This document shows, one piece after another, positions 9,055-35,100 of a DNA stretch of 64,000 nucleotides. Source of the DNA: Candidatus Brocadiia bacterium (GTDB lineage Bacteria; Planctomycetota; MHYJ01; JACQXL01; JACQZI01); assembly GCA_020051675.1 (NCBI GenBank), contig JAGVQN010000085.1:8170-72169 (forward strand), given 5' to 3'. The translations under genes were made by a program, and so were the position numbers. Below the pieces are notes generated by a model. That model did not search any database, was not told where the DNA came from, and was given only the letters and a program-made list of their open reading frames with translations. Numbering within the stretch: the stretch's first letter is position 1; each line of letters starts with the position of its first letter.

Positions 9055-10902
9055 GTGAACAAGGAAAAGAAATCAGAAGTCGTTGCCGTTCGCGTTAACG
9101 GGGTAATCTTAGACCTTCCCAAAGGAACCGAATCTAAGCCTGCCGGCGGTTCAGCCCAGGAGATTACGCTTCAGATGCCTGAAGGACTGGAAATACTGCG
9201 CCACAGCACCTCGCACGTCATGGCGGATGCGGTCAAGCGGCTTTTCCCGAACGCCAAGCTGGCCATCGGCCCGTCTATTGAAAACGGGTTTTACTATGAT
9301 TTTGACGTGGATACACCCTTCTCTCCGGAAGACCTTGTGAAGATAGAAAAGGAAATGGAATCCATCGTAAAATCCAAAACCCCGTTCACCCGCAAAGAGG
9401 TTTCCCGCGACGAGGCGTTGAAGCTTATGGATAACAAGGGCGAGTTTTATAAAACCGAACTTATCAACGAACTGGGCGACCAGAAAATCACGCTATACCA
9501 GCACGGCGATTTCACGGATTTATGCCGCGGCCCGCATATTCCGGATACCGGTTATGTCAGGGCGTTCAAACTCCTTTCCGCCACCGGTGCTTACTGGCGC
9601 GGCAATGAAAAGAATAAAATGCTCCAGCGCATTTACGGAACGGTTTTCCCTTCCAAAAAAGAGCTGGATGATTACCTGAAACACCTTGAGGAAGTAAAGA
9701 AACGCGACCACCGGCGGCTGGGCAAAGACCTGGACCTTTTCAGCATCCAGTATGATGATGCCGGCCCGGGCCTCGTCTTCTGGCATCCCAAAGGCGCCAT
9801 GATACGCAAACTCATAGAGGATTTCTGGCGGGATGAACATCTTAAACACGGCTATGAATTAATCTACGCGCCCCATATCGCCAAAATCGGATTATGGAAA
9901 ACCTCCGGGCACTGGGAGTTTTATAAGGAAAATATGTATTCACCCATGGATATCGACGGGCAGGAATATATCTTGAAGCCGATGAACTGCCCGGGGCATA
10001 TCCTGGTTTATAAAACAAAGATAAGGAGCTACCGCGATTTGCCTATCCGCTGGGCAGAACTGGGCACGGTTTACCGCTACGAGCGTTCGGGCGTGCTCCA
10101 GGGCTTATTCCGCGTGCGCGGGTTTACACAGGATGACGCCCACCTCTTTTGCCGGTTTGACCAGCTGGATGATGAAATAAAAGGAGTGATAAATTTAGGG
10201 TTGCACATTTTCCGCTCTTTCGGCTTTTCCGATTTCAAGATGGTTCTTTCTACTAGGCCTACGGAGAAATACGTCGGCACCATCGAGCATTGGGATAAAG
10301 CCACGGCCGCTTTGAAGAAATCCATTGAAGAAATCGGCCTGCCCTATACGGTTGCCGAAGGCGAAGCCGTTTTTTACGGGCCCAAGGCGGATATACATAT
10401 AAGTGATTCGCTCGGGCGCGATTGGCAATGCTTTACCGTCCAGGTGGATTTCAACCTGCCGGAACGTTTTGATATGGTCTACACCGCGCAGAGCGGGACT
10501 CAGGAACGGCCGGTCATGCTGCACCGCGCCTTAATGGGCTCGCTGGAAAGATTCTTCGCCATATTGATTGAACACTACGGCGGCGCGTTTCCCATGTGGC
10601 TGGCGCCAACGCAGGTAATTATTCTCCCTGTGGCCGAAGCACAGCATAATTACGCCAACGAGGTAAAAGCCGCCCTGGTGAAAGCGGGAGTGAGGGCGCA
10701 GGCGGATTTGAGGAACGAACGCCTGAGCCAGCGCATCCGCGAGGCAACCAACCAGAAAATATCTTATATGCTCGTGGTCGGCGACAAGGAAGAGGCGGAT
10801 AAAACCGTCGCCGTGCGCGAGCGCACCAAAGGCGATTTAGGACAACTTAAATTAGAGGATTTTATTAATCAGATAAAAGATGCGGTTAGTAAAAGATTGT
10901 AG
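9055..10902 (+). CDS. thrS: Threonyl-tRNA synthetase.
   Basis: It has a TGS domain, a class II aaRS core (HRRLGKDLDLFS) and an anticodon-binding domain. The start is GTG. Confidence 0.95.
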   Translation: MNKEKKSEVVAVRVNGVILDLPKGTESKPAGGSAQEITLQMPEGLEILRHSTSHVMADAVKRLFPNAKLAIGPSIENGFYYDFDVDTPFSPEDLVKIEKEMESIVKSKTPFTRKEVSRDEALKLMDNKGEFYKTELINELGDQKITLYQHGDFTDLCRGPHIPDTGYVRAFKLLSATGAYWRGNEKNKMLQRIYGTVFPSKKELDDYLKHLEEVKKRDHRRLGKDLDLFSIQYDDAGPGLVFWHPKGAMIRKLIEDFWRDEHLKHGYELIYAPHIAKIGLWKTSGHWEFYKENMYSPMDIDGQEYILKPMNCPGHILVYKTKIRSYRDLPIRWAELGTVYRYERSGVLQGLFRVRGFTQDDAHLFCRFDQLDDEIKGVINLGLHIFRSFGFSDFKMVLSTRPTEKYVGTIEHWDKATAALKKSIEEIGLPYTVAEGEAVFYGPKADIHISDSLGRDWQCFTVQVDFNLPERFDMVYTAQSGTQERPVMLHRALMGSLERFFAILIEHYGGAFPMWLAPTQVIILPVAEAQHNYANEVKAALVKAGVRAQADLRNERLSQRIREATNQKISYMLVVGDKEEADKTVAVRERTKGDLGQLKLEDFINQIKDAVSKRL

Positions 10903-10925
10903 ATTTTGGATGGTAGATTGTAGAG
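10893..10925 (+). repeat. Heptamer array (TAGATTG TAGATTT ... TAGATTG) overlapping the last codons of thrS. It is inverted relative to the array at 11341-11368.
   Basis: Direct reading of the sequence. Confidence 0.7.
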
Positions 10926-10937
10926 AGGGATAAGAAA

Positions 10938-11333
10938 ATGGACGAAGGATATAAGAAGCTAAAGATATATAAAATTGCGCATGATTTAGGCGTCAAAATA
11001 CACAAGATGTCATTAAGTTTACCTAAAATAGAAACCTTTGAAGAAGGCAGCCAGATACGAAGGTCGTCAAAATCGGTTTCCGCTAATATTGTGGAAGGGT
11101 ATGGTTTAAGAAAATACAAAAACGAATATATTCATTTTCTCTACCGTTCTTATGCCTCAAGCGTAGAAACCGTTGAACACCTGGAATATCTTTATGAAAC
11201 AAAATCATTGAATGATGAAAAGGTTTTTAAGGAGTTATTAAATAGCTATCAGGAATTAAACAGGATGCTTTTCGGGTTTATAAATGCCGTGGAAAAACAG
11301 CATAAAATGCCGGCATATATAGGCGATGAATAA
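10938..11333 (+). CDS. Four-helix-bundle protein (23S rRNA intervening-sequence protein / Avd-like family).
   Basis: A family-typical sequence is present (YKIAHDLGVKIHKM...SANIVEGYG...SVETVEHLEY). The gene has strikingly low GC relative to its flanks. Confidence 0.85.
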   Translation: MDEGYKKLKIYKIAHDLGVKIHKMSLSLPKIETFEEGSQIRRSSKSVSANIVEGYGLRKYKNEYIHFLYRSYASSVETVEHLEYLYETKSLNDEKVFKELLNSYQELNRMLFGFINAVEKQHKMPAYIGDE

Positions 11334-11340
11334 TTTACTG

Positions 11341-11368
11341 CAATCTAAAATCTATAATCTACAATCTA
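11341..11368 (+). repeat. Four tandem heptamers (CAATCTA AAATCTA TAATCTA CAATCTA). They are the reverse complement of the upstream TAGATTN array.
   Basis: Direct reading of the sequence. Confidence 0.7.
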
Positions 11369-11387
11369 ATCCCGCCAGGCGGGATTA
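11367..11387 (+). terminator. Hairpin TAATCCCGC-cag-GCGGGATTA after the four-helix-bundle gene.
   Basis: A perfect 9-bp stem. It has no strong T-run, so it could be a terminator or a processing site. Confidence 0.4.
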
Positions 11388-11409
11388 GGAAAGAAAGGAG
11401 GGATGAGCT

Positions 11410-11916
11410 ATTCCAGAATTAAGGATTAACGAAAGGATACGGATAAAAACCGTCCGGCTTATTGACGAAAACGGGGTTCAGTTAGGCGTTATTTCCACGG
11501 ACGACGCCCGCAAAATGGCGCGTGAAAGAGGGTATGATTTGGTGGAGGTTTCTCCCACAGCCGCCCCGCCGGTCTGCCGGATACTGGATTACGGAAAATA
11601 TAAATATGCCGAGCATAAAAAGCTTCAGCAGGCGAAAAAGAAACAGCATAGGATGCAGATAAAAGAAATCAGGCTCCATCCGAGAACCGAAGAGCATGAT
11701 TTTATGGTGAAGCTTAATCACACTAAGGAATTCCTTAAAAAAGGAGATAAGGTCATTGTTTGCATGGTGTTCCGAGGCAGGGAAATGGCGCACCGCGAGT
11801 TGGGCGATAAATTAATGGATCGGTTTATCAAAGAAACCGTTAATGTCGGCAAAATTGATACGCCGATAACCAGGCGCGGCTCCAGGTTTTCCATGATGTT
11901 GGCCCCGTTAAAGTAA
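11410..11916 (+). CDS. infC: Translation initiation factor IF-3 with a non-canonical AUU start.
   Basis: The in-frame N-terminus IPELRINERIRIKTVRLIDENGVQLGV matches IF-3 N-terminal domains. The frame opens after TGA 11404-11406 with no ATG before the conserved region. A Shine-Dalgarno AAGGAGG lies 8 nt upstream of ATT 11410. The ORF track started at the internal ATG 11515. Confidence 0.85.
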   Translation: MPELRINERIRIKTVRLIDENGVQLGVISTDDARKMARERGYDLVEVSPTAAPPVCRILDYGKYKYAEHKKLQQAKKKQHRMQIKEIRLHPRTEEHDFMVKLNHTKEFLKKGDKVIVCMVFRGREMAHRELGDKLMDRFIKETVNVGKIDTPITRRGSRFSMMLAPLK

Positions 11917-12285: not shown

Positions 12286-12630
12286 AACAAAAGGGGATTG
12301 CCCCGCTGGCAAGGCGGCGTCGGGGTGGAGCTTCACTTGTCCTGTTAAACTCTTCTGTCTTTAGCGATTCTTACCGGGCCTATCCGGAATCAGGAATCCG
12401 GACCAGTAAATGTATTCTTCTTTGGGCAATCCTTGGTAGTCCTTGTGTTCAATAGCCAGTGCCGAATGCCCGTCCGGCGTGATGACCTTGCGATAGCGCA
12501 GGTTGGCAAACCACAATATATCAGGATGCAGTTTCCTTACGGAATAGAATTAGTGTAATTTCGGGACGAAGGATGGTTGGCTTAGGATAAATTCCGCTTA
12601 AGATACCCTACGCTCTTGGCGCAGGGAGCT

Positions 12631-14205: not shown

Positions 14206-14222
14206 ATATAATGTTGCTTAAA

Positions 14223-14246
14223 AGGTTACCCCGCTTTGCGGGGTTA
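14223..14246 (-). terminator. Palindromic element GGTTACCCCGCTTTGCGGGGTTAC. It acts as a terminator-like hairpin after the M16 gene and is a member of the GTTACC repeat family.
   Basis: It is the reverse complement of the element at 17297-17319, differing by 1 mismatch. A second related hairpin lies at 14263-14293. Confidence 0.55.
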
Positions 14247-14323
14247 CAAGAGGTTATAAGAAGTTACCGCCCTTGCCTGTTGGCGGGGTAACCTTCTGTA
14301 ACATCCTGCAACTCGTTTTCCCT

Positions 14324-15706: not shown

Positions 15707-15865
15707 TACCATCAAAATAGTTATGATGTTTGGGAAAAGGCAACAGAACGTTAGGGTATCAGAATACCAGGTTGCCGGAGCATTAGATTTTTAATCACAT
15801 CTGATAATCTGATGAACTGATACACTGATATTCTTTGTCCGTCAGGACTATGTTGATTGTTTTTA

Positions 15866-17235: not shown

Positions 17236-17296
17236 GGAGTTGCAGAAGATTACAAAGATGTTACATAATGTTACAGTAACCTTTTGTAACTTATAG

Positions 17297-17319
17297 TAAC
17301 CCCGCAAAGCGGGGTACCC
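17297..17319 (+). terminator. Palindromic element GTAACCCCGCAAAGCGGGGTACC. It acts as a terminator-like hairpin and belongs to the GTTACC repeat family.
   Basis: It is preceded by GTTAC-rich repeats at 17259-17296. Confidence 0.5.
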
Positions 17320-17356
17320 TTATTAGGTAACATTTTATTTCACGAAAGGAGCAAAC

Positions 17357-32867: not shown

Positions 32868-32870
32868 AAT

Positions 32871-32946
32871 GTTACAAGTTACAGGTTTTAAGTTATAAGT
32901 CGCTTGGTTAATAACATTGTAACCTGTAACTTTTAACTTGTAACTC
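32871..32946 (+). repeat. Long imperfect hairpin built from GTTAC/GTAAC motifs (GTTACAAGTTACAGGTT ... AACCTGTAACTTTTAACTTGTAAC).
   Basis: Direct reading. A related hairpin, CAAGTTA...TAACTTG, lies at 33746-33777 on the other side of the phosphoesterase gene. Confidence 0.55.
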
Positions 32947-32955
32947 TTATGCCGT

Positions 32956-34836: not shown

Positions 34837-35100
34837 GGTATGCAGATATTAGTAATAGGGTATGCAGATGTCAGTAATAGGGTATGCGGATGTTAGTAAT
34901 AGGGTATGCAGATATTAGTAATAGGGGATGCAGATATTAGTAATAGGGTATGTAGATGTTAGTAATAGGGTATGCAGATGTCAGTAATAGGGTATGCGGA
35001 TGTTAGTAATAGGGTATGCAGATATTAGTAATAGGGTATGTAGGTATTAGTAATAGGGTATGCAGATATTAGTAATAGGTAATGAGGATATTAGTAATAG
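34837..35100. repeat. Twelve tandem copies of a 22-bp unit with consensus GGTATGCAGATATTAGTAATAG. Each unit contains the palindrome TATTAgTAATA.
   Basis: Units begin at 34837, 34859, and so on up to 35079. Variants are confined to positions 7-14. Units 2-4 are identical to units 7-9, which is a higher-order repeat. Confidence 0.9.

Follow-up and report, generated by a model that had tools for sequence, protein, structure and literature searches.

A four-helix-bundle protein gene enclosed by inverted heptamer arrays between thrS and infC of a Candidatus Brocadiia bacterium: one instance of a cross-phylum array–ORF–array architecture

The closest described counterparts of the element reported here are the intervening sequences (IVSs) in the 23S rRNA of bacteria such as Coxiella burnetii and Leptospira. 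The Coxiella IVS carries an open reading frame (ORF) for an S23p protein and is bounded by a 28-bp terminal inverted-repeat stem in which RNase III cuts, with three to four tandem copies of the heptamer GACAGAT just upstream (PMC4990558). The number of units varies between Coxiella strains, and the ORF is decaying and apparently untranslated (PMC4990558). Here, we describe a related arrangement in a 64,000-nt stretch of the genome of a Candidatus Brocadiia bacterium (the window, to which all coordinates refer), where a gene for a four-helix-bundle (4HB) protein of the same family lies between thrS and infC and is enclosed by inverted arrays of tandem heptamers. Compared genomes and metagenome contigs are identified by locus codes (L0xx and L1xx).

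Tandem heptamers are also known as dispersed intergenic repeats, including GGGAATC in Xanthomonas, GGGGAYT/STRR in Nostoc, and TAACTGA in Beggiatoaceae, cyanobacteria and Bacteroidetes. These repeats lie between genes that are co-oriented, near the 3′ end of the upstream gene, mostly as four units and often in inverted pairs (PMC4692102, PMC4679880), and several have a GAT/ATC core. The arrays of the window show the features of this class, being intergenic, of about four units, close to the upstream 3′ end and arranged as an inverted pair. In Xanthomonas campestris, 186 GGGAATC arrays have been mapped, 70 of them in inverted pairs and with four units as the commonest number (PMC4692102); one overlaps the start of XCC0516, the gene of a crystallised 4HB pentamer, on which the authors do not comment (PMC4692102 supplement). 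The TAACTGA repeats have been proposed to be sites of an unidentified regulator (PMC4679880). The dispersed heptamers differ from the window arrays in that they are mostly solo, and in that the papers treat them as G-quadruplex formers or regulator sites and do not tie them to PF05635, the Pfam family of the window protein. That fold and family are shared by Avd of the diversity-generating retroelements (DGRs), which forms a pentameric, basic barrel and binds a stem-loop of RNA (10.1101/2023.10.23.563531). In contrast to Avd, the window gene has no reverse transcriptase, template or variable repeat nearby, and heptamer arrays have not been described for DGRs. A DGR reading of the locus was rejected, as no reverse transcriptase was found among the Pfam domains of ORFs of at least 150 aa between 1 and 22 kb, in line with the initial annotation of this DNA.

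The likeness to the rRNA IVSs is more extensive. In both cases the same protein family occupies the loop between terminal inverted repeats (with a stem of ~28 bp in the IVS), the ORF is in the sense orientation of the host transcript, and the heptamer GACAGAT of Coxiella, when read as ACAGATG, conforms to the consensus NNRGATR of the 4HB loci. The link to rRNA intervening sequences drawn in the initial annotation is upheld by these Coxiella heptamers and the 28-bp stem around the same kind of ORF. The two differ in that the window element is situated in the thrS–infC mRNA spacer instead of helix 9, 25 or 45 of 23S rRNA, and in that its ORF has a Shine–Dalgarno (SD)-like site and belongs to an ORF family under strong purifying selection. 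We propose that the window element is an IVS-type cassette, of the kind represented by the ORF-bearing 23S rRNA intervening sequences, located in an mRNA operon spacer and with arms that pair in the transcript; we assign this reading a probability of roughly 0.5. The window cassette is one instance of a general array–ORF–array architecture, which appears to be previously undescribed: in a search of the openly accessible literature, no paper was found tying heptamer arrays to 4HB genes outside rRNA.

The features of the window locus are listed in Table 1. The last two codons of thrS and its TAG stop (10900–10902) lie inside the first units of the 5′ array, which begins at the stop codon, a position shared with most loci of the family, and the 3′ array begins eight bases past the 4HB stop. 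Tandem Repeats Finder called a period of 7 for both arrays. Allowing up to one mismatch, TAGATTNTAGATT has four matches in the 64 kb, all at the 4HB locus, against 0.40 expected, and this count was reached in 0 of 100 shuffles. The four downstream reverse-complement heptamers reported in the initial annotation are present as described. An upstream array at the thrS stop codon was also correctly noted, although its first unit is AAGATTG and not TAGATTG, and units 3 and 5 are degenerate. No Rfam match was found in 10700–11600, and a six-frame phmmer search found no second 4HB copy in the window.

A ThrS scan of 185,579 species genomes identified three metagenome-assembled genomes (MAGs) of Planctomycetota (L001–L003) with ThrS proteins 71–75% identical to that of the window. 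Each of the three has infC (with an ATT start) immediately after thrS, the spacers being ~35, ~150 and ~65 bp, and no 4HB gene; the check for an empty site suggested in the initial annotation was therefore positive. The hairpin that had been reported beside the 3′ array is present, with up to 10 bp. However, its counterpart is found in the thrS–infC spacer of L003 (atcccgtc-attc-gacgggat), which indicates that the hairpin predates the insert and was part of the ancestral spacer, and it was ruled out as a component of the cassette. The insert lies between the thrS stop codon and this ancestral hairpin, with no direct target duplication visible outside the arrays. As judged from these sequence comparisons, the view that gene and arrays behave as one inserted unit at thrS–infC is supported.

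Profile HMM searches matched the window ORF to PF05635 (E=1.3e-25; 90.1 bits versus a cut-off of 33.8) and TIGR02436 (E=2.9e-26; 91.8 bits versus a cut-off of 24), a family also named '23S rRNA intervening sequence protein' or S23p, confirming the 396-bp Avd-like gene recognized in the initial annotation. PF05635 was the sole domain found in the ORF, with no transposase or nuclease domain. The AF2 model (pLDDT 92.7) consists of four long helices, and was matched by Foldseek to 2GSC (XCC0516; rmsd 1.2 Å, TM 0.81/0.92), 2RLD (BT_0352; TM 0.71/0.85) and 4DWL (Bordetella phage Avd; TM 0.73/0.85, at a sequence identity of ~12%). The PDB homologues 2GSC and 2RLD, found by a profile search (a single-sequence PDB search was empty), have five chains each, and a pentameric form, as in XCC0516 and Avd, is predicted for the window protein. 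Searches of PADLOC and PHROGs gave no match for the protein. Its subfamily is absent from IMG/VR viral contigs, and a phage vehicle for the cassette is accordingly unsupported. Homologues 62–70% identical to the window protein are labelled as Ca. Scalindua, Gemmatimonadota, Cloacimonadota and one Thermoplasmata archaeon, while the ThrS proteins of the archaeal MAGs found in the ThrS scan are just 45–47% identical to window ThrS. This disparity suggests either horizontal spread or unusually strong conservation.

The wider family shows the same layout. A metagenome scan with an alignment of close homologues yielded 80 loci with proteins 48–70% identical; 74 non-redundant loci, the window among them, were compared. 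Base identity at a lag of 7 nt reached 0.41 on the upstream side of the ORF and 0.40 on the downstream side, compared with ~0.26 at other lags and in the ORF interior. Arrays of at least three heptamers were detected upstream in 65/74 loci, downstream in 50/74 and on both sides in 44/74, against 20 of 417 control windows (5%), and typically contained four to five units. The heptamer varies among loci (ACAGATA, CCGGATA, CAGGATG, CAAGGTT, GTGCGTC and others), yet the two arms of a locus match: the upstream flank had 8.5 six-mers in common with the downstream flank of its own locus read as reverse complement, versus 3.1 with the flanks of other loci (p=5e-21). The 65 upstream loci give the consensus NNRGATR, which most units of the window subfamily fit; GAT is present in 46/65 of the upstream consensus units and ATC in 40/50 of the downstream ones. 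An SD-like core was found at 34/74 family loci compared with 12/74 control windows. Further 4HB genes on the same contigs bear their own, different inverted arrays (L015, L045 and L075). The layout is retained in a divergent 4HB subfamily from Omnitrophota, Nitrospinae and Anaerolineales, with units lacking GAT (AAGTTAA, AATTAAG, CACAATG), and in approximately 8/10 4HB genes of cyanobacterial plasmids (30–36% identical), with G-rich units. PF05635 genes enclosed by inverted arrays of ~3–6 heptamers are a general class that crosses phylum boundaries.

Two candidate sources of the array pattern were rejected. Stop codons in all frames do not account for the period of 7, as many units (such as CAGGATG and GGTTCAA) contain no stop, and adenine mutagenesis of the DGR type does not account for the variation among units, which extends beyond A positions. 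In a minority of loci (L009, L010, L018, L083 and L091), the arrays on the two sides share one polarity, being direct instead of inverted, or their polarity is reversed relative to the ORF, and these may reflect tandem cassettes or rearrangements. At locus L059 (1–2250), arrays of the CAAGTTA/AAGCTTG type saturate the contig, numbering over 15 and reaching 13 units, all upstream of the 4HB gene; many of them are inverted pairs with a GGTTTCCCGCCGGAGGCGG-like hairpin between.

Heptamer arrays could in principle be neutral by-products, with slippage-prone heptamers accumulating in permissive spacers, their symmetry being maintained by intrastrand gene conversion, and the 4HB gene being an old resident lost in relatives. 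The arms are imperfect and their lengths uncorrelated, the arrays evolve faster than the ORF, and the excess of heptamer repeats in bacteria has been ascribed to polymerase slippage (work cited in PMC4692102). We nevertheless consider this explanation very improbable. It does not predict the difference between 4HB loci and control windows, the consistent polarity of the arrays relative to the ORF or their conserved core. Fast as they change, the arrays are still kept at orthologous sites across deep divergence, and the same architecture recurs not only in two divergent 4HB subfamilies but also in rRNA intervening sequences.

The inverted arrays of the window are predicted to pair at the RNA level. 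Both the minimum free energy and the centroid folds of 10880–11400 pair 10893–10925 with 11338–11370 (z=-5.0). Across the family, at least 15 long-range pairs between the flanks were predicted in 62/74 loci, with a median of 30, versus a median of 15 when the 3′ flank was foreign. The host context is that of an operon: the upstream gene is co-oriented with the 4HB gene in 65/71 loci and both neighbours are co-oriented in 47/62, with the array typically beginning at the stop codon of the upstream gene (median offset −1 nt). No promoter-like or terminator-like site was found on the sense strand of the thrS–ORF or ORF–infC spacers in the window, and the hairpin at 11366–11388 was not scored as a terminator.

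Processing of an RNA stem is the best-supported mechanism for such a cassette. The cassette probably has no promoter or terminator of its own and would be transcribed by read-through from thrS, and its two arrays would pair in the transcript to form an interrupted stem of ~26–30 bp around the ORF. By analogy with the Coxiella and Leptospira rRNA elements, in which cleavage has been demonstrated experimentally, the array stem is a putative substrate of RNase III. Cleavage would free the 4HB message, and the thrS and infC messages would end and begin, respectively, in halves of the stem, which would reduce harm to the host operon. Tandem repetition may allow pairing to tolerate the gain and loss of units.

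Several observations weigh against an IVS-type cassette with pairing arms. The arms are ~84% complementary in the best register, half of the mismatches are of the transversion type, and the mismatches are not enriched for G:U (60 versus 44, p=0.14), which argues that the arms represent a common unit family and not a helix compensated base by base. There is no correlation between the two arms in their number of units (rho −0.02), and flanks taken from different loci pair appreciably too. A downstream array was not detectable in 24/74 loci, and a few loci (L010, L018 and L091) have arrays in direct orientation. At thrS–infC, the choice of insertion over loss is a provisional one, based on three relatives alone. 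The stem would not by itself explain the period of 7. Finally, RNase III cleavage has been shown for rRNA copies only, and the Coxiella ORF is decaying, unlike that of the window (PMC4990558).

In another explanation, the arrays would be repeated binding sites of the pentameric 4HB protein, on RNA or duplex DNA, with one 7-nt unit per subunit. In the DGR complex, an RNA stem-loop is bound by the pentameric relative Avd (10.1101/2023.10.23.563531). The number of units is suggestive, as four to five are commonest in the family and four in Xanthomonas, and both PDB homologues have five chains. The conservation of the core (GAT, ATC and the NNRGATR consensus) while adjacent positions vary also speaks for this explanation. 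Similarity between heptamer families grows with protein identity, even across host contexts, and within a contig the solo arrays tend to belong to the heptamer family seen at the 4HB flanks. Precedents for the recognition of sites with 7-nt periodicity are HutP, which binds UAG-N4 repeats, and the omega repressor of pSM19035, which binds WATCACW heptads. However, covariation of protein and heptamer is equally well accounted for by co-inheritance, and a protein that binds single-stranded RNA could not recognize both the GAU and the AUC arm. The second subfamily lacks the GAT core and the cyanobacterial units are G-rich, so specificity would have to co-evolve with the arrays. Overall, we regard binding by the pentamer as a possibility of rather low likelihood, and are similarly doubtful of its functional extension, in which the protein would autoregulate the cassette and control operon spacers through solo arrays.

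Further evidence on the history of the cassettes came from their host sites, which include atpG|atpD-like, histidine kinase|response regulator, gatB and trpE|trpG junctions. Some of these gene pairs are very conserved: at L029 (2331–2852), the cassette lies between the ATP synthase gamma gene and the next atp gene. In L100 and L108 (401–778), cassettes occupy trpE|trpG of two different organisms, and their 4HB proteins are 56–59% identical. Where sites are shared, the divergence of the ORF equals that of the host genes, and dN/dS for the 4HB ORF is 0.04–0.19; the cassettes are therefore long-term residents with a functional protein. Proteins 75–85% identical in different host contexts have the same heptamer family, indicating that the arrays move with the ORF. 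The low GC content that the initial annotation had pointed out was confirmed (0.34 in the ORF against 0.48 in the window). However, the ORF is AT-richer than its host in 68/69 loci and ORF GC follows host GC (r=0.88); low GC is a family-wide trait, also of copies long inherited vertically, and was rejected as a sign of recent transfer.

Inverted arrays also occur in solo form, without a gene between them. The pair at 32868–32949 fills the spacer between an enoyl-CoA hydratase and a metallophosphoesterase gene, beginning 1 nt past the stop codon, and comparable solo pairs were identified in L012, L014, L020, L036, L037, L041 and L065. A single-arm array (12381–12403), for which no inverted partner was seen, lies approximately 100 nt 3′ of rpmI within 345 nt of non-coding sequence; it may be a remnant. 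The initial annotation had reasoned that arrays common throughout the genome as simple low-complexity sequence would argue against a cassette. Arrays of other units are indeed present at these two places in the window, but they are structured, inverted arrays rather than low-complexity sequence.

Empty thrS–infC sites, solo arrays in the window and on 4HB contigs, and the movement of arrays with the ORF among host contexts raise the question of mobility at the DNA level. The inverted arrays would then be terminal repeats for insertion, and the solo hairpins non-autonomous derivatives. The diversity of the housekeeping operons occupied is in keeping with this explanation, as are the close 4HB homologues across phyla, archaea included, and the 186 arrays (70 inverted pairs) of X. 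campestris, one of which overlaps the start of XCC0516. In architecture alone, the cassettes resemble REPIN–RAYT systems, in which one small gene lies between inverted short repeats that also occur as gene-less intergenic hairpins; each genome has repeat families of its own, and the gene persists by long-term vertical inheritance. The RAYT protein differs in being a nuclease of the HUH type, and no catalytic motif is known in the 4HB protein; the REPIN is a fixed palindrome instead of tandem heptamers. A cassette mobile at the DNA level, resembling REPIN–RAYT and with the 4HB protein as its propagation or maintenance factor, seems unlikely to us. PF05635 is the only domain of the ORF, and no transposase was found within 10 kb of the 4HB gene among the Pfam domains of neighbouring ORFs. 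The locus has neither an evident target-site duplication nor a second copy in the window, its subfamily is missing from viral contigs, and the terminal sequences of the family vary by locus, unlike ends recognized by a transposase. With no transposase, target duplication or second copy found, neither the 'iterons' of the initial annotation nor a transposition mechanism could be upheld. The initial annotation had considered a selfish or insertional lifestyle plausible; a fast-moving selfish element conflicts with the long vertical persistence of cassettes elsewhere, as stable residents that diverge at the pace of host genes.

The IVS-type reading of the window element would mean that such elements are not limited to rRNA and sit undisruptively in essential operons (thrS–infC, atpG–atpD and trpE–trpG), which implies a built-in, RNA-level way of staying harmless. 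The analysis brings together two separate puzzles, the role of the S23p/Avd-like family outside retroelements and the dispersed tandem heptamers of bacteria. 4HB genes and heptamers are found together in a constant arrangement in Planctomycetota, Omnitrophota, Nitrospinae, cyanobacteria, Xanthomonas and Coxiella, and the question can consequently be tested in cultured organisms. X. campestris, with its mapped arrays and a crystallised 4HB protein whose gene has an array at its start, is one such organism. For annotation, arrays of this type delimit cassettes and account for odd low-GC genes that split conserved gene pairs.

More tentatively, we speculate that PF05635 proteins and tandem heptamer arrays are the two parts of a single widespread system, in which the pentamer binds, processes or propagates array hairpins. 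Were this the case, the rRNA IVSs, the STRR repeats of cyanobacteria, GGGAATC of Xanthomonas and TAACTGA of Beggiatoa and Bacteroidetes would be the same element, and a protein family that comprises over 12,000 sequence clusters would gain a function, as would a repeat class unexplained since 1990.

Table 1. Positions of the cassette, its host genes and further heptamer arrays in the 64,000-nt window
Feature	Position	Strand	Basis and remarks
thrS (threonyl-tRNA synthetase), upstream host gene	9055..10902	+	ORF list; 71–75% identity to ThrS of three Planctomycetota MAGs
5′ heptamer array AAGATTG TAGATTT TGGATGG TAGATTG TAGAGAG	10893..10927	+	Sequence, Tandem Repeats Finder; fits NNRGATR
Shine–Dalgarno-like GAGAGGG	10923..10929	+	Sequence; 9–15 nt 5′ of ATG, inner base of predicted stem
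4HB protein gene, 131 aa, PF05635/TIGR02436	10938..11333	+	Profile HMMs, AF2 model, Foldseek
3′ heptamer array CAATCTA AAATCTA TAATCTA CAATCTA	11341..11368	+	Reverse complement of 5′ units; Tandem Repeats Finder
Hairpin CTAATCCCGC-CAG-GCGGGATTAG	11366..11388	+	Up to 10 bp, CAG loop, no U tract; counterpart in L003
infC Shine–Dalgarno site AAAGGAGGG	11395..11403	+	Sequence
infC (IF3), ATT start, downstream host gene	11410..11916	+	In frame with 11515–11916; ATT starts aligned in L001 and L003
Single-arm array TATCCGG AATCAGG AATCCGG	12381..12403	+	~100 nt 3′ of rpmI, in 345-nt non-coding stretch
Solo inverted arrays GTTACAA x4, 17 nt, TTGTAAC x4, no gene between	32868..32949	+	Tandem Repeats Finder; long imperfect hairpin, z=-3.3

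Other features of the window were noted in passing. The rpmI gene is not followed by rplT, either in the window (12286–12630) or in the relative L001 (5600–5722); the usual infC–rpmI–rplT trio is broken in the window lineage. A period-8 array with a GAT core, CTGATAAT CTGATGAA CTGATACA CTGATATT, is situated at 15799–15834 in a divergent spacer before a 2-hydroxyglutaryl-CoA dehydratase-like gene. A REP-like hairpin, CCCCGC(TTTG/AAAG)CGGGG, occurs in both orientations at 14222–14292 and 17256–17325, amid short repeats containing GTTAC or GTAAC, and could represent an intergenic element that is dispersed in this genome. Finally, twelve tandem copies of the 22-mer GGTATGCAGATATTAGTAATAG (90% matches) are located at 34837–35100, ~350 nt 5′ of an ORF of 7612 aa (35448–58286).

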